Part shown: positions 9,142 to 23,957 of the stretch, piece by piece
How the letters are laid out: each line of letters opens with the position of its first letter
Position numbering within the stretch: position 1 is the first letter of the stretch
DNA from: an uncultured virus (IMG/VR IMGVR_UViG_3300022752_000052)
Taxonomy: Duplodnaviria > Heunggongvirae > Uroviricota > Caudoviricetes
Length of the DNA stretch: 64,000 nucleotides
Virus record (IMG/VR): IMGVR_UViG_3300022752_000052
Location: 1-64,000 of that record
Strand: one strand, 5' to 3'
Program-made: the position numbers and the translations under genes
Notes under the pieces: model-generated
What the model saw: the letters and a program-made list of their open reading frames with translations, nothing else
The model's database searches: none
Told to the model about the DNA's origin: nothing

Positions 9142-9434
9142 AATCTAAAAATTTAAATGGTTAATAATATGTCGCAAAGATAATAACATTCTATCTAATA
9201 TCATAATCATAGAATGAAAAATATATGTTAAATAAATGTTAAAATGAAATGCAGTAAAATGTAACTCATACTATATCTCATCTATTCCCTATCATCTAAT
9301 TGACATTGCAAAAATACACCCCATTTCCCTATTATCCTAATTTCAAATGTTAAAAGGATCTAAGAAAATGTTAAAAAAATGTTAAACCCGAATCCCCACA
9401 CATTACTGGCCATGCTGGAAAGAGGGGCCTGGAA

Positions 9435-9474
9435 AATTTACTCGGGCAAGGCTTTGCCTTGCCCGAGCGAAATT
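9435..9474. repeat. Cassette-boundary site 1 (type A, loop TTT)
   Basis: AATTTA-CTCGGGCAAGGC-TTT-GCCTTGCCCGAG-CGAAATT. Confidence 0.85.
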
Positions 9475-9539
9475 CACTAGCAACAAAAAAACTCCTGACA
9501 TAGACTGCCAGGAGCGAACCACTTAAACTTATTAACCTT

Positions 9540-9665
9540 TGGAAGTCAGGGCAGGACTTGAACCTGCAAGGCTACCGCGCTACCGCGTTGATACTTTTTT
9601 TATTTAACGTGAGGATAGCGTAACCTCATTACAGTTTTTTAGCGTCTACCTTCCGCCACCTGACT
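9540..9665 (-). ncRNA. tRNA-like RNA with anticodon/variable arm replaced by a ~70-nt insert
   Basis: AGTCAGG-TG-GCGGAAGGTAGACGC...GCAGG-TTCAAGT-CCTGC-CCTGACT-T-CCA; perfect 7-bp acceptor and 5-bp T stem. Confidence 0.7.
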
Positions 9666-9682
9666 TATCATTTACTTATTAA

Positions 9683-9892
9683 TTATTTCCTTTTTTCATA
9701 AGAATTAAATACATCACTAGATGGGATATAATTAGCCTCGTTCTTATAAAACAAAGCTGCATTAATTATAGCACTAATAAGTTCTTCTTCAGTCAAGTAC
9801 ACAAGTTCTGATGAATCAAACTCGTCTGAAAGTAAGTCTTCTAAAGTAATTACTAAATCTTTTCTAGTAAGATTTTTTAGTTCTACTAACAT
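9683..9892 (-). CDS. Small acidic hypothetical protein
   Basis: Start moved to MLVELK (9892). Confidence 0.7.
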   Translation of the reverse strand: MLVELKNLTRKDLVITLEDLLSDEFDSSELVYLTEEELISAIINAALFYKNEANYIPSSDVFNSYEKRK

Positions 9893-9915
9893 AATTTTAT
9901 AATTTAAAGTGGTGA

Positions 9916-10143
9916 TTAATAATCTTCTTCGATACACTCGATATGAAATGCTATTACATCTTCATCATCTTTAGTAAGAGTGCCAGCTTTAGCTCTCTCC
10001 AATAATTCAATTAATTCATTATAATCATCAAACATTTTATCTTCTTCTTCTTCGTCCATATAAGGTGAGTATATCATACAATGAGGATTGTAGGTTTCAA
10101 ACCAAGATTCTAACTTATCTAACATTTCATTGTCTAGCTGCAT
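9916..10143 (-). CDS. Small acidic hypothetical protein
   Basis: 75 aa, D/E-rich; promoter at 10178. Confidence 0.75.
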   Translation of the reverse strand: MQLDNEMLDKLESWFETYNPHCMIYSPYMDEEEEDKMFDDYNELIELLERAKAGTLTKDDEDVIAFHIECIEEDY

Positions 10144-10177
10144 GATTTAAAATTTAAAGTGGTGAATAATTATAGTG

Positions 10178-10234
10178 CAAAGATAAGGGTATCGAATATA
10201 CTATGCAATACCCTTATCGTTAATGTTTTGTTAA
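10178..10234 (-). promoter_or_regulatory. Bacteroidota-type promoter inside a palindrome (P1)
   Basis: Same family as 6810. Confidence 0.8.
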
Positions 10235-10236
10235 AA

Positions 10237-10791
10237 CTAGTATATTAGTTTTTTCTCTTGAATTAATAGTTCTGTGATGTCCTTTATATCTCTACCTAAG
10301 ATATGGAGCTTGATTACATCTTGCCCTAGTTCGATGATTTGAGAAACAGATTCTAGGGGGTATTCCTTATAAGAAGAATGCTCTAACCATCTTTTGCCTA
10401 TCCTAATAGTTCCCGTAAAATTGCAAGATAATTTTCTTCCACAACTTTCAAAAGGAGCGGCAAGATAGATTTTTATATATCCTCTACCATGGCCAAACAT
10501 TAAAGATTCACTAATCCCGTTATAATATAAAGTGATTTCATAATCTCCTCCACAAGCTAAATGAGCATACAGATTGTTGTAACCATTAACTTCAAAATAA
10601 GGTAAATCTAATTTATCCATAACATTGGATAGTTCACCATAATAACTAAGCACAAGTTCTTTGAATCTTTTAATAACTTCTAGATTGTGAGAGTCTATAT
10701 CTCTTACATTCTGATTTGACTCTTGAATCAAAGTTGACAAATTAAATACAGACAAATCAATATTGCCTTTGGTGGCTTTTAGTTCAAACAT
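10237..10791 (-). CDS. Hypothetical protein
   Basis: Start moved to MFELK (10791). Confidence 0.75.
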   Translation of the reverse strand: MFELKATKGNIDLSVFNLSTLIQESNQNVRDIDSHNLEVIKRFKELVLSYYGELSNVMDKLDLPYFEVNGYNNLYAHLACGGDYEITLYYNGISESLMFGHGRGYIKIYLAAPFESCGRKLSCNFTGTIRIGKRWLEHSSYKEYPLESVSQIIELGQDVIKLHILGRDIKDITELLIQEKKLIY

Positions 10792-10823
10792 AATAAATAA
10801 ATTTAGTGGTTTAAAATATAGTG

Positions 10824-10880
10824 CAAAGATAAGGGTATCGGATATACTATGCAATACCCTTATCGTTAATGTTTTGTTAA
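10824..10880 (-). promoter_or_regulatory. Bacteroidota-type promoter inside a palindrome (P1)
   Basis: Same family as 6810. Confidence 0.8.
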
Positions 10881-10896
10881 TTTTCCGCGGGGATTT

Positions 10897-11307
10897 TTAA
10901 CTCTTATATTCCCCCAATCCCATACCGTCAGGAATAGAATCAATACACAATTTATAGTCAACCGAAACAATGTGAGAAATATCCCTATTATCAATATCTT
11001 CCCCCAGAAAAGTCCAATTAGGAGCAACTTTAGGATTGTACTTAATTTTAAAATCAGACTCTTTAATAAAATCAGAATATCTAATCTCTAAATGATTACA
11101 TAAAATCCATGCACATACAACCTTAGTACTTTCCCCATTAAAAATCTTAGTAGCTAATTTCTTATTATTCTTTAAAGTGCATCCCATCATGATTAATTGA
11201 ACTTCACATGGATTGTAATATGTGACAACTCCATTATTGCCAATCACTCTCCATTTCATATAATTTTCTCCACGTTGTAAAGAGAATCTAACTTTAATCC
11301 TTTTCAT
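10897..11307 (-). CDS. Hypothetical phage protein
   Basis: 136-aa ORF with own promoter. Confidence 0.8.
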   Translation of the reverse strand: MKRIKVRFSLQRGENYMKWRVIGNNGVVTYYNPCEVQLIMMGCTLKNNKKLATKIFNGESTKVVCAWILCNHLEIRYSDFIKESDFKIKYNPKVAPNWTFLGEDIDNRDISHIVSVDYKLCIDSIPDGMGLGEYKS

Positions 11308-11393
11308 GTTTTTTAATTTAAGTGGTTAATAATCTGATGCAAATGTAGGGGGAATATTTGATAAAGTAAATACCCCCCTATGTTAATGTTATG

Positions 11394-12101
11394 TTAATGG
11401 ATTACATTGTAAATATTCTTAGCTTTCTTTCCACCTTCACACAATCCACATTTAGCGCAGCTTACTTGCTTTTCTTTTGCTATGGTTGGTGCTGATGGAC
11501 AAAGGATAGCACCTTCAACCTCACTAGCATTGTAAGACCTGAATCCAAGGCCTTCGGCTAATTTTACGTCAAAGATATTATGCGTACTAGCCATTAAGTA
11601 TTTTGCATAAGGCTTATTCTCTGGTTTGTGCCATTGGTGAGTATAGCCTGAAACCTTACCAACCAAAGGCCTTATTTGTTCTATCAACTCAAAAGGTAAT
11701 AATGTAGGCTCTCCATACGTTCCCAATCTAGCAAAGGATATTTTAACCTTTTTTGTAACGCTCGTAATTTGTTCCATTACGCCTTCAGCTCCTTCCGGAA
11801 TTAATCCGTTATCCAAACGCTTTTTTAAGGCTTTTAATTTTGCAATCAATCCCCATGCTAGGGATCCGTTCGCATGGGTATAGCAACCTCCTGACTTTCC
11901 GTCGTTTGCATTATAAGAGAACTTACAATCAAAACATACCTTTGAGTCATTTTTTAGGCTACCTTCATTAATCTGGTCAATAGAAAAATGATAAGTTTGT
12001 AAGATAATTTCGCCTTTTTTAGCGAGCTTCGGAGTGGCACTAGGCTTGATATCGATACAGTGGATAACGTCGCCTAATCTGAAATTAATTTGCTTAAGCA
12101 T
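11394..12101 (-). CDS. Cys-rich Gp88-like (radical-SAM-like) protein, paralog of 16125-16844
   Basis: CxDC...GCY, RLGxYG, GYTHQW, MAST, CP, CxxCxLC. Confidence 0.6.
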   Translation of the reverse strand: MLKQINFRLGDVIHCIDIKPSATPKLAKKGEIILQTYHFSIDQINEGSLKNDSKVCFDCKFSYNANDGKSGGCYTHANGSLAWGLIAKLKALKKRLDNGLIPEGAEGVMEQITSVTKKVKISFARLGTYGEPTLLPFELIEQIRPLVGKVSGYTHQWHKPENKPYAKYLMASTHNIFDVKLAEGLGFRSYNASEVEGAILCPSAPTIAKEKQVSCAKCGLCEGGKKAKNIYNVIH

Positions 12102-12326
12102 AACTTGTGTATTTAAGTGGTTAATAATCTGATGCAAAAATAAAAAGTAATTTTCTATTTTCCAAATTTAAGGCAAACTTTTTTTAAATTATTTTTTTGC
12201 CTTTCTAATTACTCTCTCTCTTAACAACACCACAAAGATAAGCATAAAAACAATACCTAGTAGTTAAGGGAGTGTTAATGTTTTCCCTATTTTAGTTAAG
12301 GAAATGTTAAGATCCGCCCCTGCAAA

Positions 12327-12366
12327 AAATTACTCGGGCAGGGCAAAGCCCTGCCCGAGCGAAATT
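12327..12366. repeat. Cassette-boundary site 2 (type A, loop AAA)
   Basis: CTCGGGCAGGGC-AAA-GCCCTGCCCGAG-CGAAATT. Confidence 0.85.
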
Positions 12367-12376
12367 CACTGGCATG

Positions 12377-12411
12377 AAAAAACCCTCCCGGAGTTAACCA
12401 GGAGGGTTTTT
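12377..12411 (-). terminator. Intrinsic terminator
   Basis: AAAAACCCTCC...GGAGGGTTTTT directly after the stop of 12414. Confidence 0.75.
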
Positions 12412-12413
12412 AT

Positions 12414-12890
12414 TTACGAGTGCATATTCACTAAGACAACAAAAGTAAATTTGCCATTAGTGTATAATTCAGAAATACCAGGTTCGTCAATACTTCCGTC
12501 ATAAAAAGTATCTGACCATATATCAACTTTAGTAGGGTCTGAAAGACTTGCTATTTCAGATTGCTCTTTGCAATAATTAGCGGCACATCTCCAATCAAAA
12601 GGATGAACTATTTCAGTATTCTCTAAATTAGACACCTTAAGGAATGCTTGCTTGTAGTAATCATTTACCTCTGTTAAAAAATTAAATCTATTTGGGTCAT
12701 TAAGTAATTCATCCTTAGTTATCCATTTCTCATCAAAAGATTCAGAGAATGATTTGTCTTCTTTGCAATGAGAACCCATGATAGTAAACCAATTATTCTC
12801 TGTACCCCAATCAAATAGATAGTCCTCAACAATGCCAATAGCGTCGGAATGAGAATCAGCTTTTGTTCTAATTAAATGCAGATTGTGCAT
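12414..12890 (-). CDS. Hypothetical protein
   Basis: Start moved to MHNLHL; ends VVLVNMHS. Confidence 0.75.
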   Translation of the reverse strand: MHNLHLIRTKADSHSDAIGIVEDYLFDWGTENNWFTIMGSHCKEDKSFSESFDEKWITKDELLNDPNRFNFLTEVNDYYKQAFLKVSNLENTEIVHPFDWRCAANYCKEQSEIASLSDPTKVDIWSDTFYDGSIDEPGISELYTNGKFTFVVLVNMHS

Positions 12891-12979
12891 AATTTTAAAA
12901 TTTAAAGTGGTGATTAATATTTTACAAAGATAGGAGGAACATTTTACATTTCCAAACATTCCCCCCACATTTTTTTAAA

Positions 12980-13705
12980 TTAATTTGCGAACTCCATAGA
13001 AAGATTAGCTAACCTCTCATTGATAATTGCAGTCTTGTTTGGGTCTTTCAATGCAGAATATTTTCTTCTACCTGCAAACCCATTAATCAATTTTTCTTGA
13101 ATGCGATTCTGAATTGCCCAAAGCGTATTTTCATCATCTGCGAACCTTTCTGACGCAAGTAATACCTTAGCCTCATTTTCTGTAAAGGCTCTCTTAAAAC
13201 GCAAAGCAGCAGCCTTCATGGCGAATTCAATAGCCTTTTCTTCGGTCAAGTTTACAGACATTTGCTGCAATACATATTCCTCGAGTTTAGGTAGCAATTC
13301 AAAAAAGTTGGCTACAATCTCACCTGAAATAACTTTCTCTGAAATATCGATTGCCTTCTTTCCAAAATGCCTTATTTTGAAAATCTTAGATTCAAATCTT
13401 GAATCCGATACAGTTAGTCCGTTTGAGCATACTAATCTAAATATCCCCATTGAACATTCAAACCCAACCGTTCCGTCAAACGAATTACGGATAACGACCT
13501 CTGGATATAAGGTTTCACCATTTAAGATTAATTCCTTATTGTACCTCATTCTAATAAGGTGCGCGGAACTTTTAGCACCTTTCTTTTTAGTCTGAAAGCC
13601 CGAAAGCTCAAAACCATTAGACTGAAGGTCATTAATTAATTTCTTTGAGCTAATAGCTACATACTTTGCGCTTAGATTTGCGCTTACTTCTTCTGTGAAA
13701 AGCAT
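12980..13705 (-). CDS. DUF932/DUF945-family protein
   Basis: NSFDG, GIFRLVCSNGL, LW..NRIQE motifs. Confidence 0.8.
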   Translation of the reverse strand: MLFTEEVSANLSAKYVAISSKKLINDLQSNGFELSGFQTKKKGAKSSAHLIRMRYNKELILNGETLYPEVVIRNSFDGTVGFECSMGIFRLVCSNGLTVSDSRFESKIFKIRHFGKKAIDISEKVISGEIVANFFELLPKLEEYVLQQMSVNLTEEKAIEFAMKAAALRFKRAFTENEAKVLLASERFADDENTLWAIQNRIQEKLINGFAGRRKYSALKDPNKTAIINERLANLSMEFAN

Positions 13706-13930
13706 ACATTAAAAATTTAAAGTGGTTAAGAATCTGATGCAAAAATAAAGAGTAATTTTCTATTTTCCAAATTTAAGGCAAACTTTTTTTAAATTATTTT
13801 TTGCCTTTCTAATTACCCTCTCTCTTTATAACACTACAAAGATAAGTATAAAAACAATACCTAGTAGTTAAGGGAGTGTTAATGTTTTCCCTATTTTAGT
13901 TAAGGAAATGTTAAAATCCTGGTCCTGCAA

Positions 13931-13970
13931 AAATTACTCAGGCAGGGCTTTGCCCTGCCTGAGCGAAATT
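13931..13970. repeat. Cassette-boundary site 3 (type A, loop TTT)
   Basis: CTCAGGCAGGGC-TTT-GCCCTGCCTGAG-CGAAATT. Confidence 0.85.
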
Positions 13971-14033
13971 CACTGGCATGAAGATCCCCGACGGACACTA
14001 AATCCGACGGGGCAAAAAACAAGTCATGTATTC

Positions 14034-14243
14034 TTACCTTAGCTTTGCTCTAAAATAATTAAAAACTTCGGGGATATCTTTCTTGTAATACGGTTGATTA
14101 TCCTTAAGCCATTCCTTTAGTTCTTTGTCATTTTTAAAAGGTGCTGTCCAGGAATGACTATTAATAATTCTATTAAAAGTGGGCTCAAGTTCATCTATAA
14201 AATCTTGAACTGTCCAACCTTCCCAAATATGTTTATTATTCAT
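14034..14243 (-). CDS. Hypothetical protein
   Basis: Start moved to MNNKHIWEGW. Confidence 0.75.
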   Translation of the reverse strand: MNNKHIWEGWTVQDFIDELEPTFNRIINSHSWTAPFKNDKELKEWLKDNQPYYKKDIPEVFNYFRAKLR

Positions 14244-14336
14244 TTTACTTTTTTTAAGTTTTTCGCGGGGATTAATATAATTTAAAGATAGGGAGAACAT
14301 TTATATTTTTAAACATTCCCCCATCTTTTTTAAATC

Positions 14337-14729
14337 CTATCCATATATAATTTCATTTAAAAATACAATCTGTAAAACAACATCTCCAGTAACTGCATCA
14401 TCATTATCATTTATCATGTCTAACAGATGGTCTAAGGGAACATTCTTAACTCTTTCATGTACTGTATCTAATGTAATATATTCTGTATCCATTCCACCTT
14501 CAAGGTCTTTCAATCCAATTCTAACTCCATCTCTTAACATTTGCATTAAAACATCTTCATAACATGGACTACTCAATTTAGCCTTAGCATTATTGTAGTC
14601 AGATTGTTTGTACTTTAAATCAAGTCCATATCCACTACACATATAATCCAATGAATTACATAAAGCATTGAAAAAAATCTCTTCGCTCAATTCATTTGTA
14701 AGCGAAACTTTTAAACCTTCTTTGTTCAT
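14337..14729 (-). CDS. Hypothetical phage protein
   Basis: C-terminal DAVTGDVVLQ...EIIYG motif. Confidence 0.8.
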   Translation of the reverse strand: MNKEGLKVSLTNELSEEIFFNALCNSLDYMCSGYGLDLKYKQSDYNNAKAKLSSPCYEDVLMQMLRDGVRIGLKDLEGGMDTEYITLDTVHERVKNVPLDHLLDMINDNDDAVTGDVVLQIVFLNEIIYG

Positions 14730-14771
14730 TTTTTAAGTATTTAAGTGGTGATTAAGATATTGAAATTCTAC

Positions 14772-14999
14772 TTATCTGTTTTCCATAATTTGACTAATCA
14801 TAATATCCATTGCTTCCTTATGCGTGAGAATGTTTCCAAACTCTAACATACTTTCTTCATCATAATATACTCCATTTCTGTCATTCCATTTTAACCAACT
14901 AATTAAGCTTTCTCTTGTCCATTTGCTTAATTCCTCTCTTAATTGTGATTCATTCATAGAATCATCTAAGATTCCATAAAAATTATGTCTTGTTCCCAT
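14772..14999 (-). CDS. Hypothetical protein
   Basis: Start moved to MGTRHNF; WLKWNDRNGVY. Confidence 0.75.
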   Translation of the reverse strand: MGTRHNFYGILDDSMNESQLREELSKWTRESLISWLKWNDRNGVYYDEESMLEFGNILTHKEAMDIMISQIMENR

Positions 15000-15081
15000 A
15001 GATACTTTATTTAAGTGGTGATTAATATAAGGCAAAGATAAGGGGAATATTTTACATTTCCAAACATTCCCCTCACATTTT

Positions 15082-15576
15082 TTACGCTAATTGAAAAACT
15101 TCTTTTGCTTTTAGATTCTGAATGCAGTCAACCTCAATCATTCTCAATTCAAACTCATTAGATTCCGTTTCTGGTTCTATTTCTTGCATTCTTTTAACTA
15201 ATGCTAACCGATTCCGTTCTGTTGTTGCGTCTGGAAAACCCCATCTAACTTGTTTTCCTGGAATTAAGAAAATGCGTAGAAATTTCTTTAGGTTCTTTGG
15301 ATTGTCGAATAAATGACCTTTGTTATCCAAAGCTCTAGCCCAACCTGGATTTACTACAACTTCCTCGCCCTCTCTATTCTCTAATCTTTTTTTGTAGGTG
15401 CTACCCAATTGGCAGGTACGAAAAGTAATGCAGCGCACTTCTTCGCGAGAAATACCATTAGCAGCCAACCAACCATAAGTTAGCTTTTTTGCTACCTTTT
15501 CTGCTGATGACTCATACTGGATAGCAGCAAAAGTGTTTCTAGGCGATAAGCCCTCGATGAAATTTAGAATACTCAT
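15082..15576 (-). CDS. Hypothetical protein
   Basis: 164-aa ORF with own promoter. Confidence 0.8.
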   Translation of the reverse strand: MSILNFIEGLSPRNTFAAIQYESSAEKVAKKLTYGWLAANGISREEVRCITFRTCQLGSTYKKRLENREGEEVVVNPGWARALDNKGHLFDNPKNLKKFLRIFLIPGKQVRWGFPDATTERNRLALVKRMQEIEPETESNEFELRMIEVDCIQNLKAKEVFQLA

Positions 15577-15705
15577 AAGACTTGTTTATTAAGTGGTTTA
15601 AAATTATGATACAAAGATAAGGGTAAAATCAATACCTAGTAGTTAAGAGAATGTTAATGTTTTCCCTATTTTAGTTAAAGAAATGTTAAAATCCGCCCCT
15701 GCAAA

Positions 15706-15745
15706 AATTTACTCAGGCAGGGCGGAGCCCTGCCTGAGCGAAATT
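15706..15745. repeat. Cassette-boundary site 4 (type A, loop GGA)
   Basis: CTCAGGCAGGGC-GGA-GCCCTGCCTGAG. Confidence 0.85.
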
Positions 15746-15811
15746 CACTGGCATGAAAGATCCCCGACGGACACTAAATCCGACGGGGCTAAAAAACAAG
15801 TTATTATATTT

Positions 15812-16042
15812 TTAGTAGTTTATGCCTCCTTCGCATCTACCGTTATTAAAAATTTGGTCGTCGCTTGGGTCTTCGTCGTAAATTGTTAGTATGTAATTTA
15901 CAAATTTTTCTAAGTCCTTTTTTGATATACCGTTGAACCCGTCGAAGTCCTTAAGTTCTGATACCGTTTCTTTTGCAAGTATTATAAGCTCTTCGTTTAT
16001 GTCGTTTTGAGAGCTTGCAGATATCCTACTGTTGATTGCCAT
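15812..16042 (-). CDS. Hypothetical protein
   Basis: 76-aa ORF between promoter and hairpin. Confidence 0.7.
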   Translation of the reverse strand: MAINSRISASSQNDINEELIILAKETVSELKDFDGFNGISKKDLEKFVNYILTIYDEDPSDDQIFNNGRCEGGINY

Positions 16043-16124
16043 AACTTTATAATTTTAAGTGATTAATAATATGTTGCAAATATAAGGGGAATATTTGAAA
16101 TATCCAAACATTCCCCTATATTTT

Positions 16125-16844
16125 TTAGTGTTTAGGAATATAAATATTTTTTGCGCTTATTGAATTTCCCGCACAAAGTCCACAATTGGCGCAAGATACC
16201 CTTTTTTCCTTTTCTATCGTTGGTGATGATGGACACATAATACTGTTTTCTATGGTGCCTACATTGAACGTCCTGAAGCCTAAATCATTGGCTATTTTTG
16301 CCTCAAAAATATTATGCGTCGAAGCCATCAATAATTTAGCGTATTCCTTAAATTCCGGTTTGTTCCACTGATGGGTATAACCCGTTTTACGTTTTGCTAA
16401 TTTAGATAAACCGTTTAACAAATCTAAAGGTAGTGTAACCGCTTCACCATACGAGCCAAACCGTACTAATGAAATATTTAGATTTTTGGCAGTCAATTTA
16501 TCTAAATACTTGTTTAATAAAGGCAGTACGTCGCTATAATCTGTAGCTAATAAACCTAATTTATACTTTTTATTAAGAGAGCGTAATTTAGATTTTAAGC
16601 CTTTTAGCATATTACCTTTATGCGTATAACAGCCACCACTTTTACCGCTGTTTTGATTGTAGCTAAAAGGACAATCTAAACAATTTTCTTTATCTTGAGT
16701 AAAGTCATTGTTTATAACTTGCTGCAAATCATAGTGATACGTTTGTACAACAAAACGACCACCAAGTTTTTTTGTAGCCGATAATTTAAGGTCTATAGAA
16801 TGTACTGTTTGACCTAAAATAAAATTGAAACCTAAGATTTTCAT
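16125..16844 (-). CDS. Cys-rich Gp88-like (radical-SAM-like) protein, paralog of 11394-12101
   Basis: Same motifs: CLDC, GGCYTH, RFGSYGE, GYTHQW, CANCGLC. Confidence 0.6.
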   Translation of the reverse strand: MKILGFNFILGQTVHSIDLKLSATKKLGGRFVVQTYHYDLQQVINNDFTQDKENCLDCPFSYNQNSGKSGGCYTHKGNMLKGLKSKLRSLNKKYKLGLLATDYSDVLPLLNKYLDKLTAKNLNISLVRFGSYGEAVTLPLDLLNGLSKLAKRKTGYTHQWNKPEFKEYAKLLMASTHNIFEAKIANDLGFRTFNVGTIENSIMCPSSPTIEKEKRVSCANCGLCAGNSISAKNIYIPKH

Positions 16845-16985
16845 AACCTGTTTTTGTTTAAGTGATTAATTAATTGCATTACAAAGATAATACTATTTTT
16901 TAAATTTTAATAATAAGTTTAGTTAAAAAAGTGTTAATGTTTTCCCTATTTTAGTTAAAGAAATGTTAAGATTCGCCCCTGCAAA

Positions 16986-17025
16986 AATTTACTCAGGCAA
17001 GGCTCCGCCTTGCCTGAGCGAAATT
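16986..17025. repeat. Cassette-boundary site 5 (type A, loop TCC)
   Basis: CTCAGGCAAGGC-TCC-GCCTTGCCTGAG. Confidence 0.85.
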
Positions 17026-17079
17026 CGCTAGCATAAGAATGCCCACCAAACCGTTCCGTTTGGTGGGTTTCTTTATTTA

Positions 17080-17316
17080 TTAGTGAGCTAAAAGATATAT
17101 CCCAGGTTGTCCCTTTGAAGGTCCGTTTCCAACAGGTATCGGCCTTATGGGCTTTTGTATTTTAAATTGGTTTTCAAACCGATTAATTTCGTTATCCAAT
17201 TCATAGGCTACATCTATAAAATCGGTAAAATCTAAATTACCGTTTTCTGAAATTGCCTTTTTAATAGCCGATTGAAGAGTTTTTAAAGCGCCTTTTTTTT
17301 CTTTTAAAGTAACCAT
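17080..17316 (-). CDS. Hypothetical protein
   Basis: 78-aa ORF; P1-like promoter at 17350-17406. Confidence 0.7.
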   Translation of the reverse strand: MVTLKEKKGALKTLQSAIKKAISENGNLDFTDFIDVAYELDNEINRFENQFKIQKPIRPIPVGNGPSKGQPGIYLLAH

Positions 17317-17402
17317 TTTTAAGTTTTTTGTGGTTTAAAAATTATAAAGCAAAGATAAGGGTATTGAATGTATTATGCAATACCCTCGGTGTTAACGTTT
17401 TG

Positions 17403-17579
17403 TTAAATTATCAGTACTGCAAATAATACAATTAGCAATATCCATAAGGACGAACCAATAAAAAATTTTGTTAACGTCTGTTTTACTGTATCGCCGTCGG
17501 CTTCGCTATTTAAAATCATAGCGTATAAACTAATCGGAAACCAACAGCCTAAAAAGAAAATTAAAATGAATAGGTACAT
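17403..17579 (-). CDS. Small two-TM membrane protein (not in ORF track)
   Basis: Translated by hand: MYLFILIFFLGCWFPISLYAMILNSEADGDTVKQTLTKFFIGSSLWILLIVLFAVLII. Confidence 0.65.
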   Translation of the reverse strand: MYLFILIFFLGCWFPISLYAMILNSEADGDTVKQTLTKFFIGSSLWILLIVLFAVLII

Positions 17580-17725
17580 AACTTGTTTATTTAACGCCTT
17601 CGCTTCATTGCGACTGCATTACAAAGATAATACTATTTTTTAAATTTTAATAATAAGTAGTAGTTAATAAGTGTTAATATTTTCGCTATTTTAGTTAAAG
17701 AAATGTTAAAATCCGCCCCTGCAAA

Positions 17726-17765
17726 AATTTACTCAGGCAAGGCGGAGCCTTGCCGGAGCGAAATT
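17726..17765. repeat. Cassette-boundary site 6 (type A, loop GGA)
   Basis: CTCAGGCAAGGC-GGA-GCCTTGCCGGAG. Confidence 0.85.
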
Positions 17766-17854
17766 CGCTAGCGGATTGATTCGGACAAAATCCAGGATTT
17801 ATAGGTAGCTATTATTTGAGGGGTTGAGCCGTAACTCAACCCCGAATTTCCGTT

Positions 17855-18052
17855 CTACAATCGGTTGTATTGAGACTTTGCGACTCTTAGCTGACCTTCT
17901 GTTAGAACATCCTTAGCCCACCTCTTGAAGGAAGCAAAGTTCACCACGGTATCTATGTCCCTACCGTTCTGGGTTACTCTAACTTTTTTTCCTAGTACAG
18001 AAGCTGAGAAAATGATTCTGATACCGTTCGATTCTAAAATGGTGCTTTTCAT
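17855..18052 (-). CDS. Small basic hypothetical protein
   Basis: Sole ORF of its unit, with promoter and hairpin. Confidence 0.7.
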   Translation of the reverse strand: MKSTILESNGIRIIFSASVLGKKVRVTQNGRDIDTVVNFASFKRWAKDVLTEGQLRVAKSQYNRL

Positions 18053-18196
18053 GGTACTTGTTTTTACGTTTAAGTGATTAATTAATTGCTTTTGATTGCA
18101 TTACAAAGATAAACAAAAAAGTAATAAGTAGTAGTTAATAAGTGTTAATATTTTTGCTATTTTAGTTAAAGAAATGTTAAGATCCGCCGCTGCAAA

Positions 18197-18236
18197 AATT
18201 TACTCAGGCAAGGCGGAGCCTTGCCGGAGCGAAATT
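18197..18236. repeat. Cassette-boundary site 7 (type A, loop GGA)
   Basis: Identical core to site 6. Confidence 0.85.
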
Positions 18237-18263
18237 CGCTCTGACAAGGGTCCTTAAGTTTCC

Positions 18264-18500
18264 TTAGTTGCACTCACATTTTATGCGTAGTGTGTTTACG
18301 TCGACTTTGATACTGTTATACTCAAGGTCTATACCGTAGAACTTAACCGTTTCATTAATCAAAGAATCCGTTTTGGTAAACGTTCCAGGCATCTCCCATG
18401 ACCGCGTACCTACTTTTTCTAAGTACTCCGTTTTGCCTCCGTTTGACTGTGGAACGCATACATAAACATAAATGATAATGATTATTAATTTGCCTAACAT
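18264..18500 (-). CDS. Small protein with hydrophobic N-terminus
   Basis: 78 aa. Confidence 0.65.
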   Translation of the reverse strand: MLGKLIIIIIYVYVCVPQSNGGKTEYLEKVGTRSWEMPGTFTKTDSLINETVKFYGIDLEYNSIKVDVNTLRIKCECN

Positions 18501-18565
18501 GATATATAATTTAAAGTGTTAAAAATTTGTTAAAGTAGGGTAGGCTTTCGCCTACCCCTTTTGGT

Positions 18566-18865
18566 TTACTTTGTGCTTAAGAATTGCCATGTAGGCGTCT
18601 CTTCGTAGGTTGCAATGCCGTTATTTTGCTCGTTGGTTTTACGCGTTTTAAGCATTTTTTCCAACGTTCTAACCCATTTTGAATATGCCCACGTTTTGTT
18701 CTTACGAATGCTTACAGTGAACCCACCTACTTTTAATAGGGTTAAGTTTTGGGACTGTAAACCTTCAATGATTTCAGCGCGAAGCGTTTTTTCCCTTGCT
18801 TCTAAAATTGATTTTGCAGCCAATACCTCTTTTAATTCAACTGCAACACTTTCTAAATTTTTCAT
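18566..18865 (-). CDS. Coiled-coil hypothetical protein (paralog of 2459-2788)
   Basis: KTWAYSKWVRTLEKMLKTRKTNEQNNGIATY; followed by GAAA-loop hairpin at 18538-18557. Confidence 0.75.
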   Translation of the reverse strand: MKNLESVAVELKEVLAAKSILEAREKTLRAEIIEGLQSQNLTLLKVGGFTVSIRKNKTWAYSKWVRTLEKMLKTRKTNEQNNGIATYEETPTWQFLSTK

Positions 18866-18985
18866 AACTTTGTTTTTTAGTGCTCTCGCTTCATTGCGAT
18901 TGCATTACAAATATACAACAAGATTTTTATATTTAATAACTTTTAGCAAATAAATTTCAATATTTTTTTAAATTGATCCGCAAAA

Positions 18986-19025
18986 AATTTACTCGGGCTT
19001 CCTGTTAGTCAGCCCTAGCAAAATT
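18986..19025. repeat. Cassette-boundary site 8 (type B)
   Basis: AATTTA-CTCGGGC-TTCCTGTTAGTCA-GCCCTAG-CAAAATT. Confidence 0.85.
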
Positions 19026-19055
19026 CGTTCGCTTCCGTTCGGTTCCGTTTGGGCA

Positions 19056-19088
19056 TAAAAAAACCCCGAACCGTTTCCGGTCCGGGGC
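19056..19088 (-). terminator. Repeated intrinsic terminator (also about 20726, 21393, 22092, 24100)
   Basis: Minus strand CCCCGGACCGGAAACGGTTCGGGG followed by a T tract. Confidence 0.8.
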
Positions 19089-19097
19089 TGTTTGGTT

Positions 19098-19529
19098 TTA
19101 GAACTCTTGCCACATTTCTTGAGTGACGTCCTGCATTTCTTGTACCCATATATCGAATAAGGGGTGTTGAGATTCGTCGAACTGTTCCCATTGTTCCTTT
19201 TGGTACATCCCCTCCCAAAACTCAGATTCTTCAGGTAGTGCATCTATTTGTTGAGGGAAAAACTTTTCGGGGTGATAAGATAACAAAGACATAAAAATTA
19301 TCTCTTCTGATTTCTTTGCCCAATTTTTGAATTCTTGGATAAAAAATTCAGGACCAATTGAAATTTCTGTACCGTCCTGTAATTCTTTTTGGCATTTCCG
19401 GAACGCTTCATAGAATGCCAATTTTGTATCTTCCTGCCCAACTCCAAATCCAACATAGACTTGAGCAGTGTTTAAAATTGGGAACATGGCATTGAATATT
19501 GTCGCCACATAATTCTGATTGTTTTCCAT
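19098..19529 (-). CDS. Acidic hypothetical protein
   Basis: 143-aa sole ORF of its unit. Confidence 0.75.
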   Translation of the reverse strand: MENNQNYVATIFNAMFPILNTAQVYVGFGVGQEDTKLAFYEAFRKCQKELQDGTEISIGPEFFIQEFKNWAKKSEEIIFMSLLSYHPEKFFPQQIDALPEESEFWEGMYQKEQWEQFDESQHPLFDIWVQEMQDVTQEMWQEF

Positions 19530-19642
19530 AAGGATAAAGTATTTAAGTGATTAATTAATGACTCAAAAATACAACATAAAACTATATAATCATAACTTTT
19601 ACCTAATTATTTTGCTAAAAACACCATATTTGATCCGCAAAA

Positions 19643-19682
19643 AAATTACTCGGGCTTTCTGTTAGTCAGCCCTAGCAAAATT
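19643..19682. repeat. Cassette-boundary site 9 (type B)
   Basis: CTCGGGC-TTTCTGTTAGTCA-GCCCTAG. Confidence 0.85.
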
Positions 19683-19735
19683 CGGCGGGGATTAATCATA
19701 AACCAATCCCAGCCGTAAACTACATCTATCATCAT

Positions 19736-20005
19736 CTATAAAAACCAATACTTCATGCAAACTAATGCTATATAAATCCAAACTAAATCATTAAATATAC
19801 ATTTTAAATCAATCCTATCATCTTTACTTATAATGTTTAATAATTCCTTACATATATCCCAAATGTTATTAATGACAATGATAACCAATAATAATTTAAT
19901 CCAGAATGCCCAATCATGAGGAACTGCATCAATGGATAAAAATCTCATTACATGCGTTCCAAATTGGATTGCATCATTATTCAAAAGAGATGATAGACTA
20001 TTCAT
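19736..20005 (-). CDS. Small membrane protein
   Basis: Two hydrophobic segments; lies in a skewed tract. Confidence 0.55.
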   Translation of the reverse strand: MNSLSSLLNNDAIQFGTHVMRFLSIDAVPHDWAFWIKLLLVIIVINNIWDICKELLNIISKDDRIDLKCIFNDLVWIYIALVCMKYWFL

Positions 20006-20095
20006 GTTAATGTGTTTGAAATGTGATATGATAAAATGTAATCCGTTCTAATGATAAAACGAACCCCGACCGTTATAAGCCGAGGTTCGTCCGTT

Positions 20096-20227
20096 CTAAA
20101 TGTTTTTAATTATAGTGCCTATGATTACTAGCACAATCATTAATAACATTCCTACATAGAATGACACGCAAACAATCTCGATATGATTGTTTTTGATGTC
20201 GATTAACATTCTTTGAGTTCTCGACAT
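20096..20227 (-). CDS. Small single-TM protein
   Basis: Start moved to MSRTQR. Confidence 0.55.
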   Translation of the reverse strand: MSRTQRMLIDIKNNHIEIVCVSFYVGMLLMIVLVIIGTIIKNI

Positions 20228-20286
20228 AACTATTTGTTTAAGGGGTTTAAAAAGTGCCCCGCGATATAACCGCGGGGCTTTTTTGT

Positions 20287-20532
20287 TTAGGCCTTTTTTA
20301 AGCAATCCTCGATAAATTCTACGGCATTGTTCAATAACCTTTCTGTTGAATGCATGTGGACGTTTTCAACTTCATTTGGAAATTTACCTTTTAATCTGTA
20401 AAATTCCTCTCTTGTTTTTACCATAGATTCTAAGTACTTTTCCTGTGATTCTTTAGAACCATAGTACTTTTGTTCAACCATTGTTGAAATAATCAAATCC
20501 GCGAATACTTGGCTTACAATGAATGCTGACAT
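20287..20532 (-). CDS. Hypothetical protein
   Basis: 81 aa; promoter upstream and GCCCCGCG hairpin downstream. Confidence 0.75.
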   Translation of the reverse strand: MSAFIVSQVFADLIISTMVEQKYYGSKESQEKYLESMVKTREEFYRLKGKFPNEVENVHMHSTERLLNNAVEFIEDCLKKA

Positions 20533-20645
20533 AAGGATAAAATATTTAAGTGATTAATTAATGACTCAAAGATACAACCAGTTACGCTATATTCCTAATA
20601 TTTTGTCAATTATTTTACCAAAAACACCCTATTTGATCCGCAAAA

Positions 20646-20685
20646 AATTTACTCGGGCTTTCTGTTAGTCAGCCCTAGCAAAATT
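20646..20685. repeat. Cassette-boundary site 10 (type B)
   Basis: As site 9. Confidence 0.85.
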
Positions 20686-20771
20686 CGTCGGCGTCCGTTT
20701 CGTTTTGATACGTTCCGTTTGGGCATAAAAAAACCCCGAACCGTTTCCGGTCCGGGGATTCTGTTTAGGAG

Positions 20772-21200
20772 TTACATAAAAAGCAGCCACTGATATTCTA
20801 ACCCTCTTGCGAGTAAATAATCCCCAAAGGACATTGAGCCGTGAGTAGAAGAGTGACACACGCAATCGTGAATGTTAACACCTACCGCTGGAGTGATATG
20901 AGGGATTAAAGCCTGCTTCAGGAACCCTTTAACCGCGCCATTATAGGTGCAGTATGTTTTGCCGTCTCTTTCCTCAATTTCATAGGTGAACTGGCTCCAC
21001 GCCGTGTAGATTAGCATGTAGCCCTCTTTCCAGATTATCTCCGCATAAGAGTCGGTAAACTCTAAATCTACCATTCTAGCTTTGTTACGGTAAGGTATCC
21101 CGTTTTCGTCGTGTACCATTTCAAAATCAGAGTATTTGTCAGATTGGCAATACTCTAATAGGTCTGCAATTGATTGAGAAATTTCAAATGTGATTTTCAT
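20772..21200 (-). CDS. Hypothetical protein
   Basis: 142-aa sole ORF of its unit. Confidence 0.8.
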   Translation of the reverse strand: MKITFEISQSIADLLEYCQSDKYSDFEMVHDENGIPYRNKARMVDLEFTDSYAEIIWKEGYMLIYTAWSQFTYEIEERDGKTYCTYNGAVKGFLKQALIPHITPAVGVNIHDCVCHSSTHGSMSFGDYLLARGLEYQWLLFM

Positions 21201-21312
21201 GATGTAAAATATTTAAGTGATTAATTAATGACTCAAAGATACAACCAGTTAAGCTATATTCCTAATATTTTGGCAATTATTTTGCTAAAAACACCATATT
21301 TGATCCCCAAAA

Positions 21313-21352
21313 AATTTACTCGGGCTTCCTGTTAGTCAGCCCTAGCAAAATT
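21313..21352. repeat. Cassette-boundary site 11 (type B)
   Basis: As site 8. Confidence 0.85.
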
Positions 21353-21436
21353 CGTCGGCATCCGTTCCGTTTCGATACGTCCGTTTGAGCATAAAAAAAC
21401 CCTGAACCGTTTCCGATTCAGGGTTTTATCTATCAC

Positions 21437-21688
21437 TTACAGTTGTTGAATCTTAATCAACACTTCATCTACTTGTGAAGGTGATAAGTACCCAAGTACG
21501 TCGTCCGTTATGGGTGTAGTATAACATAACTTGTCATTTTTTAAGACGGCTAACTCATACAATCCCATATTGCCACCGTAGCTAAATGGGTGTTTTACAA
21601 CACTAGCGCCGTAACCATTAGTAAATTCAATACGGCTAACGACTCCTCCCATTTTTGGTTCAAAAACTAAATCCTTAAATGACTTCAT
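21437..21688 (-). CDS. Conserved-looking phage protein
   Basis: F.NGYGASVV...SYGG..GLYELAVL...TPITDDVLGYL pattern. Confidence 0.8.
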   Translation of the reverse strand: MKSFKDLVFEPKMGGVVSRIEFTNGYGASVVKHPFSYGGNMGLYELAVLKNDKLCYTTPITDDVLGYLSPSQVDEVLIKIQQL

Positions 21689-21723
21689 GATAATAAAATT
21701 TAAAAGTTAATAATATTAAAAAG

Positions 21724-21751
21724 TACGCGTTTTAGGTATGCGCGCCCCACC
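21724..21751 (-). repeat. Intergenic GTGGGGCGCGCATAC-N6-7-ACGCGTA motif, copy 1 of 4
   Basis: Other copies at 24413-24440, 24847-24874, 25333-25359. Confidence 0.8.
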
Positions 21752-21756
21752 ATTTT

Positions 21757-21909
21757 TTATAAGGGTGTCCCCTCCTTCTCTGTGATACGGTAATAAGTAC
21801 CATTATCAAATTCAGTAACGTGTATTACGTTCCAGTATTTGTCTTGATTCTTGGCAATTGCGTTTTTTGCGCACTTCAAATACTTATAAAATTTAACTTT
21901 GTACAGCAT
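21757..21909 (-). CDS. 50-aa protein, paralog of 24881-25033 (not in ORF track)
   Basis: MLYKVKFYKYLKCAKNAIAKNQDKYWNVIHVTEFDNGTYYRITEKEGTPL. Confidence 0.75.
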   Translation of the reverse strand: MLYKVKFYKYLKCAKNAIAKNQDKYWNVIHVTEFDNGTYYRITEKEGTPL

Positions 21910-22020
21910 AGCCGTAAATATTTAAGTGATTAACAATGACTCAAAGATACAACCAGTTAAGCTATATTCCTAATATTTTGGCAATTATTTTACCAAAAAC
22001 ACCATATTTGATCCGCAAAA

Positions 22021-22060
22021 AATTTACTCGGGCTTCCTGTTAGTCAGCCCTAGCAAAATT
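22021..22060. repeat. Cassette-boundary site 12 (type B)
   Basis: As site 8. Confidence 0.85.
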
Positions 22061-22136
22061 CGTTCGCTTCCGTTCGGTTCCGTTTGGGCATAAAAAAACC
22101 CCGAACCGTTTCCGGTCCGGGGCTTTTCTGATTTGA

Positions 22137-22541
22137 TTAATGACCATAATCAAATCCGAAAAAAATCTTTTTGCCAGATTTCAATACATACTCAGATGTA
22201 TGAATACCACAGCACATTTGATTAACTGATTTGATGAATTCATGTTCATCATCATTTATGGTGTAATTACCGATGAATTCATAATTATCATTGTTAAAAT
22301 CATCAAGGGGAATGAGTTTTTCCACCTCAATTAACTCTTCAATAGTAATGTTTGATCCGACACCCATTACTCTTTTAAGGAAGAATACATTTGGGTCATT
22401 GGATTCAATAATTAATCTAGCTTGTGCTAGTGCATTTTCTAGTTTTCCTCTCTCAGATGGGTTCGAGATTGCATCATTAATTTGATTAAATAAATAATCA
22501 ATTGCATTTAATGCCAACTCAATTTTAATTTCCTTATTCAT
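22137..22541 (-). CDS. Hypothetical protein
   Basis: 134-aa sole ORF of its unit. Confidence 0.8.
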   Translation of the reverse strand: MNKEIKIELALNAIDYLFNQINDAISNPSERGKLENALAQARLIIESNDPNVFFLKRVMGVGSNITIEELIEVEKLIPLDDFNNDNYEFIGNYTINDDEHEFIKSVNQMCCGIHTSEYVLKSGKKIFFGFDYGH

Positions 22542-22650
22542 AACAAAATATTTAAAAGATTAACAATGACTCAAAGATACAACCAGTTAAGCTATATTCC
22601 TAATATTTTGGCAATTATTTTGCTAAAAACACCATATTTGATCCGCAAAA

Positions 22651-22690
22651 AATTTACTCGGGCTTCCTGTTAGTCAGCCCAAGCGAAATA
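22651..22690. repeat. Cassette-boundary site 13 (type B)
   Basis: CTCGGGC-TTCCTGTTAGTCA-GCCCAAG-CGAAATA. Confidence 0.8.
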
Positions 22691-22763
22691 CGCTAGCCCT
22701 CTTTGGCTACGTTCCATTGAATAAGAGAGAGCCTCCGTCCGTTTCCGTCCGGAGGCTTCCGTT

Positions 22764-22889
22764 CTACTCTTCTTCCTCTTCGTCCTCTTCCTCTTGTCCC
22801 TCAATTAATTCACATACTAAGAGGTCCGCCTCATAGTCATCAAGTAACTCCTCGGTTACTAAGGTTCTTAAAAACTCTTCGTGGCTCAT
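22764..22889 (-). CDS. 41-aa highly acidic peptide (not in ORF track)
   Basis: MSHEEFLRTLVTEELLDDYEADLLVCELIEGQEEEDEEEEE. Confidence 0.65.
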   Translation of the reverse strand: MSHEEFLRTLVTEELLDDYEADLLVCELIEGQEEEDEEEEE

Positions 22890-22943
22890 AACTTTAATTT
22901 TAGTGGTTAAAAATAGCCCCGCGTTTTACCGCGGGGCTTTTTT

Positions 22944-23156
22944 CTAGCATTTAGAATAGAACAAGTGGAAACTTGAACGCTCTTCTGGTGTTGCCAAGAT
23001 AGCTTCTGTCTTGCGTATGTCATCAGGAGCATCACCTATGGCATACTTTTCAACTGAAACATAAATCATACCTTCGCGAGTAATACCGGCCCATTTACCA
23101 GTTTTTAACTGAATAAATTTTGAAGCCTTAACTTCAGAAAACTTTACTTCGTACAT
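22944..23156 (-). CDS. Hypothetical protein
   Basis: Probable start MYEVKF (23156); GTG at 23180 is an alternative. Confidence 0.65.
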   Translation of the reverse strand: MYEVKFSEVKASKFIQLKTGKWAGITREGMIYVSVEKYAIGDAPDDIRKTEAILATPEERSSFHLFYSKC

Positions 23157-23277
23157 AACCTGATTTTTTAGCGCAGCCACCCCATTGCGACTACCCTACA
23201 AATATACAACAGAAAAGCATAAATTCATAACATTAGTACATATATTTTACCAAAAACACCATATTTGACCCTCAAAA

Positions 23278-23317
23278 AATTTACTCGGGCTTCCTGTTAG
23301 TCATCCCTAGCAAAATT
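23278..23317. repeat. Cassette-boundary site 14 (type B)
   Basis: CTCGGGC-TTCCTGTTAGTCA-TCCCTAG-CAAAATT. Confidence 0.8.
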
Positions 23318-23431
23318 CGTTCTGTCCGTCAATTCATCCGTCCATCTATTCGTTCTATCCGTCATTGCATCTATCCGTCTTTTATATGGGTCTGTCCGTC
23401 GGTGCCGTTCTATTGTGCTGTTCTGTTTGTT

Positions 23432-23957
23432 TTTTGCGGGGAACTATCATGTACATATAATATCAATCCAGAAATATAATACATCTTTTATAAACATTCA
23501 ATTATACATCACTTACATTATATAACATTTAATATAACATCTATCATAACATCTAAACTACATTATATCATATCATCTTATATACATTATCCTATACATA
23601 CATCTAATAATACATCTATCTACCATACATCTAATATACAACATTTATATTACATATCCTAACATCTATCTATATAACATTAAATAAAAAATATAATATC
23701 TAATATACATCTATCTATCATCTAATATAACATCATTTAATCTATATAACATCTATACAACATAAGGTATATCATTTAATCTATATAACATCTAATATAC
23801 ATCTAATATACATGGTACATATCTTATCAGGCAATTCATTATATGTTTTATTATATCCTATTCATCTATCATCTATCTATCATCTATTGTATCATGTGTA
23901 TCTAATGTATCTAATGTGTGTGATGTATGTAGTGTGTGTGATGTAATTGGGCCCCGC
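23432..23957. other. Non-coding skewed tract bounded by convergent GCGGGG / CCCCGC motifs
   Basis: No G in 23472-23765; no C in 23912-23951; rich in CATCTA and CATCTATC. Confidence 0.8.

Follow-up and report, generated by a model that had tools for sequence, protein, structure and literature searches.

A repeated stem-loop and promoter module in an uncultured freshwater T4-like phage, a probable terminator/promoter cassette of the PeSL type

Introduction

What is the role of a bipartite inverted-repeat site that recurs 14 times, always in the same orientation, between the small genes of an uncultured virus? The site lies in the IMG/VR record IMGVR_UViG_3300022752_000052, where its array is confined to one 14-kb region. 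The window analyzed here is the first 64 kb (64,000 nucleotides, nt) of this 77.6-kb record, whose estimated completeness is 44%. The original prediction, made from the sequence of the window, considered an integron-like system for the acquisition or shuffling of gene cassettes, perhaps carrying early anti-host genes, or else a repeated binding site for a phage protein, and also drew a comparison with the promoter/stem-loop cassettes (PeSLs) of T4-type phages. We conclude that the sites are probably the stem-loop half of a PeSL-type terminator/promoter cassette, which recombines by homology and is not integron-like. It also seems rather likely that the composite cassette, about 120–170 nt long, stands before every small unit of a hyperplastic, ORFan-rich region.

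The site and its promoter

A pattern search allowing at most two mismatches found the site at 14 co-oriented places, with the same core coordinates as in the original prediction, compared with 0.14 expected by chance (standard deviation 0.40, maximum 2; 100 shuffles). The 14 places gave 28 pattern matches, because the core is palindromic and is read on both strands; on the plus strand the cores at 17732, 18203, 22657 and 23284 needed one mismatch. A covariance model of 68 related sites identified the 14 places at 61.8–71.2 bits, all on the minus strand. The model found no further copies in the whole 77.6-kb record, only weaker plus-strand echoes of seven of these places and one match at chance level (E=0.84), and the flank motifs are confined to the same 14 places across the record. 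Neighbouring sites are 471–2892 nt apart. On the minus strand each of them reads GAATTTYG, a palindromic core of 27 nt and TAAWTTTT; upstream of it the preceding unit ends, often with a separate hairpin. No Rfam 15 family matches the sites at the gathering score, which the window reaches for two tRNAs only.

All 14 sites are followed on the minus strand by a TAnnTTTG box, at +76/77 (seven sites), +91/92 (four), +102 (two) or +124 (one). The offset goes with the class of the module: it is +76/77 in the seven type-B modules, +91/92 or +102 in type A, and +124 in the last module. The passages of PMC9723704 that concern the sigma-A consensus of Flavobacterium psychrophilum place TAnnTTTG at −12 to −5, as the −7 box. 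The −33 element of the array departs from the consensus. Within the record, site and promoter always occur together; in the six genomes compared throughout (this record, G000, and the related contigs G001 to G005, with 68 sites in total), 65 of the 68 sites lie between the end of a unit and a TAnnTTTG box at fixed offset.

An ATG follows the −7 box by about 40 nt in 11 of the 14 modules; modules 1–3 have longer leaders, and their first long open reading frame (ORF) starts about 130–170 nt after the box. One to five ORFs follow each promoter. The description of the units as self-contained holds in that each has a promoter box of its own. Among 27 ORFs of the array, 23 have no PHROG family (E≤0.001), the other four match families of unknown function, and a single one, ORF 12980–13705, passes the Pfam cut-off (DUF932); no DNA-binding domain was found among them in the Pfam and PHROG scans.

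In type-A modules (for example, 12240–12320, 13845–13925 and 15620–15700) four TTAAC boxes are arranged as two pairs, with 11 nt within a pair and 32 nt between the pairs, and the last box sits in place of the −33 element. This suggests that type A may form a class of activator-dependent promoters similar to the middle promoters of T4 and distinct from type B.

Hairpin structure and covariation

Copies 1–7 form 12-3-12 hairpins, as had been predicted, with one C-U mismatch in those at 17732 and 18203; the three type-A sites that were folded with their flanks have energies of −24.5 to −30.3 kcal/mol (z from −5.6 to −7.5), and the type-A hairpins extend into the AAUUU/AAAUU outer arms. These AATTT/AAATT arms pair across a CG/T internal loop. 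The prediction that copies 8–14 (type B) are weaker was borne out (−16.5 and −9.8 kcal/mol for the two folded), yet they can still be drawn as full 12-3-12 structures with purine-purine mismatches. The core length of exactly 27 bp applies to this window but not to the family: among the 68 sites of six genomes it is 27 nt in 47, 28 nt in 20 and 29 nt in one, where a G is bulged out or the loop has 4 nt. The fixed length is thus particular to this genome, and the variation within the family fits a hairpin better than a rigid dimer operator.

In the alignment of the 68 sites, 88.7% of the pairing cells are paired, compared with 79.4% in shuffled alignments and 27.6–58.1% when the partners are slid. 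Cells with double changes number 100, whereas 34.2 were expected, and this count was reached in none of 500 shuffles. At least six forms of the inner arms occur, and they are always complementary. In a simple terminator scan, the region contained 35 terminator-like matches versus 8.2 expected, the top-ranking ones, confined to the minus strand, being four of the 14 sites, all of type A. A possible micro-ORF, with its ATG ahead of the type-A site and its TGA stop within the right arm, was considered and rejected: cores of 28 nt disrupt its frame, and type B lacks the ATG.

Related arrays and variation of the palindrome

Pattern scans found the same arrays in the five further IMG/VR contigs, G001 to G005. 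About 40 metagenome contigs also carry sites (107 stretches); 80 of the 107 stretches condense to 42 segments with 87 sites and 41 distinct cores, which add further stem variants. Part or all of the stretch is present in 20 public runs from 10 studies, seven of which contain at least half of its sampled words; nearly all of the 20 are lake or freshwater metagenomes. Matches to the flanks in bacterial genomes (at least 121 places) were dismissed as chance, the 80 loci that were scored all reaching at most 29.2 bits versus 62–71 for true sites. Twenty of 22 IMG/VR loci with a single match were scored and gave at most 29.2 bits, except for L069, a further phage contig with 62.9 bits. One more contig, G006, was rejected as a member (E=0.68).

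The loops of the hairpins are found in both orientations: AAA/TTT, GGA/TCC, TAAA/TTTA, GATA/TATC and GAA/TTC. At the orthologous sites at window 12333, the sole difference between this record and G003 within 171 nt is TTT versus AAA. Contigs from other lake samples have the loop flipped at 12345–12347 in runs X4 and X6 and not in X8, and at 13949–13951 in X4 and X8 and not in X6. The sequence of the loop is clearly irrelevant to function. Thirty nine pairs of contexts have flanks at least 95% identical; the core is the same in 11 of them and different in 28, by its length in 16 pairs, by both arms in nine, by loop inversion in two and by another loop change in one. The interiors of the sites are alike within a genome and different at orthologous positions between genomes. 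This is concerted evolution, with frequent exchange between modules combined with a DNA-level behaviour of the palindrome.

Between this record and G003 the divergence is 2.6% in the core (7/270), 2.4% in the rest of the module (38/1600), 1.4% in other intergenic sequence and 1.0% in ORFs. The whole module evolves fast and the hairpin forms no special peak; a divergence hotspot at the hairpin was rejected, the value for the core being no higher than that for the rest of the module.

Exchange of gene units and recombination genes

The order of the genes from family f25 to family f13 is largely kept across the six genomes. The original prediction is upheld in that whole-unit differences are marked by the repeated module: G001 carries an additional f2-f6 unit across f18 from the resident copy, to which it is 82% identical; in G005 the order of the f19 and f20-f21 units is reversed; and the hypervariable type-B end differs even between this record and G003 (window 20786–24842). 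Elsewhere these two genomes are 98.8–99.8% identical in long collinear blocks (window 1–20786 and from 24842 onward), and their only large difference lies in the array. Among 153 sites from 48 sequences, the F3 to F0 junction is fixed (15 of 16) and F4 is variable, leading seven times to F9 and seven times to F7.

We also located the ends of homology between modules, in pairs that are not independent of each other. Left ends fall between −39 and +9 in 140 of 304 pairs. Right ends (184 pairs) fall at +30–49 in 19, at +120–149 in 43, at +160–179 in 61 and at +220–269 in 47; those at +30–49 occur where only the site is common to different promoter classes. The ends are scattered, with accumulations at −10 to −30, +30–40, +120–140 and +160–170. 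Individual ends were also seen at −8 to −16, +3, +34–46, +70, +98 and +111–172. The ends lie at module edges and not at one point in the site. Synteny mostly kept and breakpoints spread over the shared promoter sequence are what the original prediction had named as speaking against shuffling at the site, and this is largely what the relatives show. Joints in contigs from four runs, for example from 19584 to 22593 (equivalent positions of two modules), have a short side of 21–51 nt at repeats and are indistinguishable from graph paths.

Six-frame searches of five contigs gave no match to Phage_integrase (PF00589; control positive in 14 of 14 genomes), Resolvase (PF00239; positive control worked) or Y1_Tnp of the Y1 HUH type (PF01797; control positive in six genomes), and none of the three was present in Pfam scans that covered 93 ORFs of G004, 30 of G003 and 4 of this record. 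The earlier statement that the window contains no recombinase is therefore correct for site-specific enzymes, but it overlooked a RecA-family recombinase gene on the minus strand (63040–64000, continuing to 64218 beyond the window; PF00154, E=4.1e-47). In this record the gene is adjoined, just past the window end, by that of a gp32-like single-stranded DNA-binding protein (PF08804). An endonuclease VII-like gene lies at 56989–57453, minus strand (phrog_3322, 7.6e-19; phrog_1035 "endonuclease VII", 1.1e-15; no Pfam match), and the phage also encodes a Rad50/Mre11-like protein, exonucleases and, in G004, endonuclease I.

The repeat, its combination of promoter and stem-loop, and its ORFan region match the PeSLs of T4-type phages, which is why we read the site as the terminator/insulator half of the cassette and the shuffling as homologous. 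The host RNA polymerase would start each unit at its sigma-A-type promoter with the TAnnTTTG box, while the GC-rich hairpin with a T-rich tail, 76–124 nt upstream, would stop or attenuate transcripts from the preceding unit; together, hairpin and promoter would insulate each unit. The repeated module may provide portable homology for the RecA/gp32-type recombination of the phage, a mechanism suggested by the observed pattern of exchange. The RecA-family recombinase would then act in the exchange between modules, and the endonuclease VII-like protein is a candidate actor only. Such recombination would homogenise modules within a genome and now and then duplicate, delete, swap or reorder whole units, and, at the level of DNA, the perfect palindrome would invert its loop and alter its two arms in concert. 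From the sequence we infer termination, promoter activity, early timing and the mechanism of recombination.

In G002, G004 and G005 (L081, L082, L083/L084), members of a small ORF family, f4 (54–92 amino acids), are inserted within units at several different places, which lie between f9 and f10, before f12, and after f44. Part of a methyltransferase-like ORF of 208 amino acids (window 5573–6199) is related to this family, which may be a small mobile insert.

Alternative explanations

Several observations weigh against the reading as a terminator/promoter cassette. Pairs with changes on both sides number seven of 18, a count that was reached by 86 of 500 shuffles and is not exceptional; moreover, perfect palindromes can correct themselves by mutation, so the covariation is no proof of selection. 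TAAA stands between the stem and the T run, and the T run is just 3 nt long in five of the 68 sites. A canonical terminator is found just upstream in 29 of 65 distinct contexts of the six genomes, where the site therefore looks redundant; compensation of weak hairpins by such upstream terminators was considered and rejected (22 of 44 weak versus 36 of 82 strong contexts, Fisher p=0.58). The differences in gene content at the type-A end are mostly inside units with no site nearby (f27, f53, f4/f43 and f28/f29), and the unit orders derive from metagenomes assembled from short reads, in which repeats may be joined wrongly. In G003 (L079, 16154–18004) the f42 unit is repeated 1166 nt apart, with 100% identity from the hairpin interior to the end of the next promoter; this 1.17-kb duplication is suspect, since it may reflect either a loop in the assembly or an unequal crossover that joined modules very recently. 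Finally, the flanks (AATTT ... AAATTT) and the base of the stem are conserved as strongly as the −7 box and are common to three promoter classes that are otherwise not alignable. Such conservation is unusual for simple terminators and would suit a protein site.

The last point keeps a protein operator as a live rival, possible though unlikely. The site would be bound as double-stranded DNA by a phage or host protein through two half-sites of AAATTT, 1–2 nt and CTCRGG, with the hairpin potential being secondary, and one factor could switch the whole array together, for example from early to middle expression. It would be consistent with this that flanks and outer stem are invariant or nearly so in the 68 sites while the 13–15 nt between them vary freely, that one and the same site serves the three promoter classes, and that type B retains flanks, outer stem and length despite its degraded inner pairing; in addition, the relative G004 encodes two ParB_N-domain proteins of unknown role. 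However, the inner stem covaries through its at least six arm sequences, the spacing of the half-sites varies by 1–2 nt with the core length, and the array ORFs lack a recognised DNA-binding domain. The distances from the site to the −7 box (+77, +91/92, +102 and +124) are not in helical phase between classes, which argues against a positioned activator.

The hairpin might be more than a passive terminator and act as a DNA-level hotspot, the extruded palindrome being nicked or cut by a structure-specific phage nuclease of the endonuclease VII or endonuclease I type and repaired from a paralogous module. We regard this as distinctly unlikely; if true, the site would drive gene conversion, loop flipping and unit exchange, and would thus be a recombinase-free, structure-triggered cassette shuffler.

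An RNA processing or stabilising element is very unlikely. Read-through transcripts would be cut at, or protected by, an interrupted helix of 17 bp, formed by the lower AAUUU/AAAUU stem, the internal loop and the upper 12-bp stem. RNase III sites separate the early messages of T7 in a comparable way, and the extended helix with its internal loop is conserved here. The type-B mismatches in the core are nearly all purine-purine on the sense strand (86 versus six pyrimidine-pyrimidine), but these cases come mostly from one lineage, and U-G and A-C mismatches are equally rare (five and four), so the wobble pairs give no strand signal. In the RNA-library run X20, contigs of 180–337 nt from a relative lie inside ORFs and one passes through a terminator and site (19144 to 18973); these could be DNA carry-over, and contigs cannot show ends. 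Furthermore, no processing is required to keep the messages separate, given that a promoter precedes every unit.

A dedicated recombination site, at which a site- or structure-specific enzyme would recognise the folded hairpin or cruciform and excise and insert units in the manner of attC, is highly improbable. Some whole-unit junctions do lie within about 10 nt of the hairpin (left −8 to −16, right +34 to +46), the extra f2-f6 unit of G001 is arranged as if an excised circle had been inserted, the loop flips show the palindrome to be active as DNA, and junction-resolving nucleases are encoded (the endonuclease VII-like protein, plus endonuclease I in G004). But junctions are also found at +70, +98, +111–146 and +172 and pile up at every edge of shared homology; hairpin differences are no denser than those in the rest of the module; and the searches with working controls revealed no site-specific enzyme. 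The units carry their own promoters, their order is mostly conserved and insertions and deletions occur within them. The core motif of attC is GTTRRRY, and nothing like it was seen in the alignment. The integron-like acquisition that had been proposed is thus not supported.

Recognition of the hairpin as a promoter by an N4-like single-subunit RNA polymerase of the phage is close to refuted: the N4 virion polymerase recognises extruded DNA hairpins with stems of 5–7 bp and a specific 3-nt loop, and the array does have three-nucleotide loops on GC-rich stems upstream of early-looking genes, but the stems measure 12–13 bp, the loops flip between strains and so cannot be the signal, a host-type −7 box lies at a fixed distance downstream, the phage is T4-like, and RNA_pol (PF00940) had no match in five contigs in a search without a working positive control, nor in the Pfam and PHROG scans of this incomplete genome.

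The 14 modules and their surroundings

The modules are numbered from the last transcribed to the first, and all lie on the minus strand. Module 1 (9309–9477; core 9441–9467, flanks 9429–9477) has TTAACAT boxes and its −7 box at 9309–9316 (+124); it scores 69.8 bits, folds at −28.2 kcal/mol (z −7.3) and would drive a long operon starting with ORF 8569–9141.

Modules 2–7 are of type A. Module 2 (12233–12369; core 12333–12359) contains four TTAAC boxes and a −7 box at 12233–12240 (+92), and G003 and the runs X4 and X6 have its loop in the inverted orientation. Module 3 (13837–13973; core 13937–13963; −7 box 13837–13844, +92), with the loop flipped in runs X4 and X8, folds at −30.3 kcal/mol (z −7.5). 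Module 4 (15612–15748) has its core at 15712–15738 and its −7 box at 15612–15619 (+92), and module 5 (16882–17028; 71.2 bits) at 16992–17018 and 16882–16889 (+102). One C-U stem mismatch is present in the core of module 6 (17622–17768; core 17732–17758; −7 box 17622–17629, +102; −24.5 kcal/mol) and in that of module 7 (18104–18239; core 18203–18229; −7 box 18104–18111, +91), which is without a separate upstream terminator hairpin.

Modules 8–14 are of type B, with a degenerate inner stem. Module 8 (18908–19028; core 18992–19018) has its −7 box at 18908–18915 (+76); in the others the offset is +77. These are module 9 (19564–19685; core 19649–19675; −7 box 19564–19571), module 10 (20567–20688; core 20652–20678; −7 box 20567–20574), module 11 (21234–21355; core 21319–21345; −7 box 21234–21241), module 12 (21942–22063; core 22027–22053; −7 box 21942–21949; −16.5 kcal/mol, z −3.7), module 13 (22572–22693; core 22657–22683; −7 box 22572–22579) and the first transcribed, module 14 (23199–23320; core 23284–23310; −7 box 23199–23206), whose hairpin is the weakest (−9.8 kcal/mol, z −1.65). 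The near-identity to G003 (98.8%) stops about 100 nt upstream of the site of module 10, at window 20786. The gene units between the sites (9683–23180, minus strand) comprise the 27 ORFs tested, one to five per unit.

Short repeats containing ACGGA (AACGGAAC-like) occur in two to three copies between the unit terminator and the site in type B only (window 19019–19060, 20679–20735, 21346–21395, 22054–22100 and 23311–23420), with about ten copies before the first site. Between a strong terminator (about 24095–24130) and the first site of the array lies a non-coding, AT-rich field of about 600 nt (23440–24020), with approximately 24 degenerate copies of a 12-nt unit (TAGATGTTATAT-like, minus strand). 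It belongs to the part that diverges between this record and G003 (87% identity) and looks like an iteron field or origin, or else a protein-binding array.

A tRNA gene lies at window 5102–5175 on the minus strand; its anticodon was left unassigned by ARAGORN, and it scores 42.7 bits with the Rfam tRNA model. On the same strand, a stretch of about 125 nt at 9540–9665 resembles a tRNA: its acceptor stem pairs and it has a T arm and a CCA end, but about 50 nt are inserted in the middle, and neither ARAGORN nor Rfam calls it. Contigs from other lake samples differ in sequence here, with loose ends at 9562 and 9661.

The phage

The source is an uncultured freshwater T4-like myovirus with Bacteroidota-type promoters. 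Large ORFs of the window encode a family-A DNA polymerase, DnaB, ribonucleotide reductase, exonucleases, the endonuclease VII-like protein and many glycosyltransferases; a T4-type portal, gp23 capsid protein, gp21-type prohead protease, T4-type terminase, sheath and baseplate (gp25) are encoded in G003. The nearest cultured phage is Flavobacterium phage vB_FspM_immuto (PolA identity 46.9%), in which the covariance model of the site found no match.

Glycosyltransferases, 2OG-Fe(II) oxygenases, sulfotransferases and methyltransferases are very dense in window 33103–53339 and in G004 (L090, L091), which also encodes ThyX. This density hints at heavily modified DNA or virion glycans.

Comparison with known systems

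The present array extends terminator/promoter cassettes from T4-type phages of Proteobacteria to an uncultured freshwater T4-like clade with Bacteroidota promoters, and it supports the view that repeated regulatory modules let large lytic phages keep swappable small accessory genes. The clade is widespread in lakes and thus offers many natural variants. The hairpin also documents clearly how such palindromes change, as its loop flips and both of its arms are replaced between strains about 99% identical. The module could be put to use in Flavobacteriia as an insulated part for gene expression. No description of such cassettes in Flavobacterium phages was found in the literature searched.

REP/BIME elements are intergenic palindromes mobilised by RAYT (Y1 HUH) transposases. 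They resemble our sites as short, imperfect palindromes at gene ends with conserved flanking bases, whereas our sites have no Y1 transposase in the five contigs, are always coupled to a promoter, occupy a single region and are absent from the bacterial genomes examined. Plastid genomes undergo small hairpin-loop inversions, and quasipalindromes undergo template switching; here, too, a short loop between perfect inverted arms occurs in both orientations among close relatives and the arms change together. That likeness concerns mutational behaviour and not function, and in our case it is seen in a regulatory repeat of a phage. Like ours, integron attC sites are imperfect palindromes spaced along a series of small genes in one orientation, with an unpaired base in the outer arms; the array differs from an integron in having no integrase, a promoter for each unit, no fixed crossover point, no attC core motif and a largely conserved order.

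The comparison with T4-type PeSLs made in the original prediction fits. The PeSLs, described in RB49/phi1 (Arbiol et al. 2010, PMC2839356) and in T4/PST and KVP40/nt-1 (Comeau et al. 2014, PMC4122927), combine a host-type promoter with a stem-loop terminator, recur in hyperplastic ORFan regions and serve as portable homology by which modules are shuffled. Their terminator activity, promoter activity and mini-circles were shown experimentally. In both cases a composite of host-type promoter and stable stem-loop is repeated before ORFans, the myovirus has T4-like core genes and recombination genes of its own but no dedicated recombinase, and some of the differences between relatives are insertions, deletions and replacements of units adjoining the repeats. 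Unlike the known PeSLs, the module described here belongs to a phage of a Bacteroidota host and uses a promoter of the −7 TAnnTTTG type instead of −35/−10; its stem-loop lies 76–124 nt upstream of the −7 box and has strongly conserved flanks common to three promoter classes; and it is about 120–170 nt long versus about 100, with terminator and promoter activities that are predicted. In summary, this is not a new kind of system, and what is particular to it is the host phylum, the type of promoter, the distance between hairpin and promoter, and the dynamics of the palindrome.

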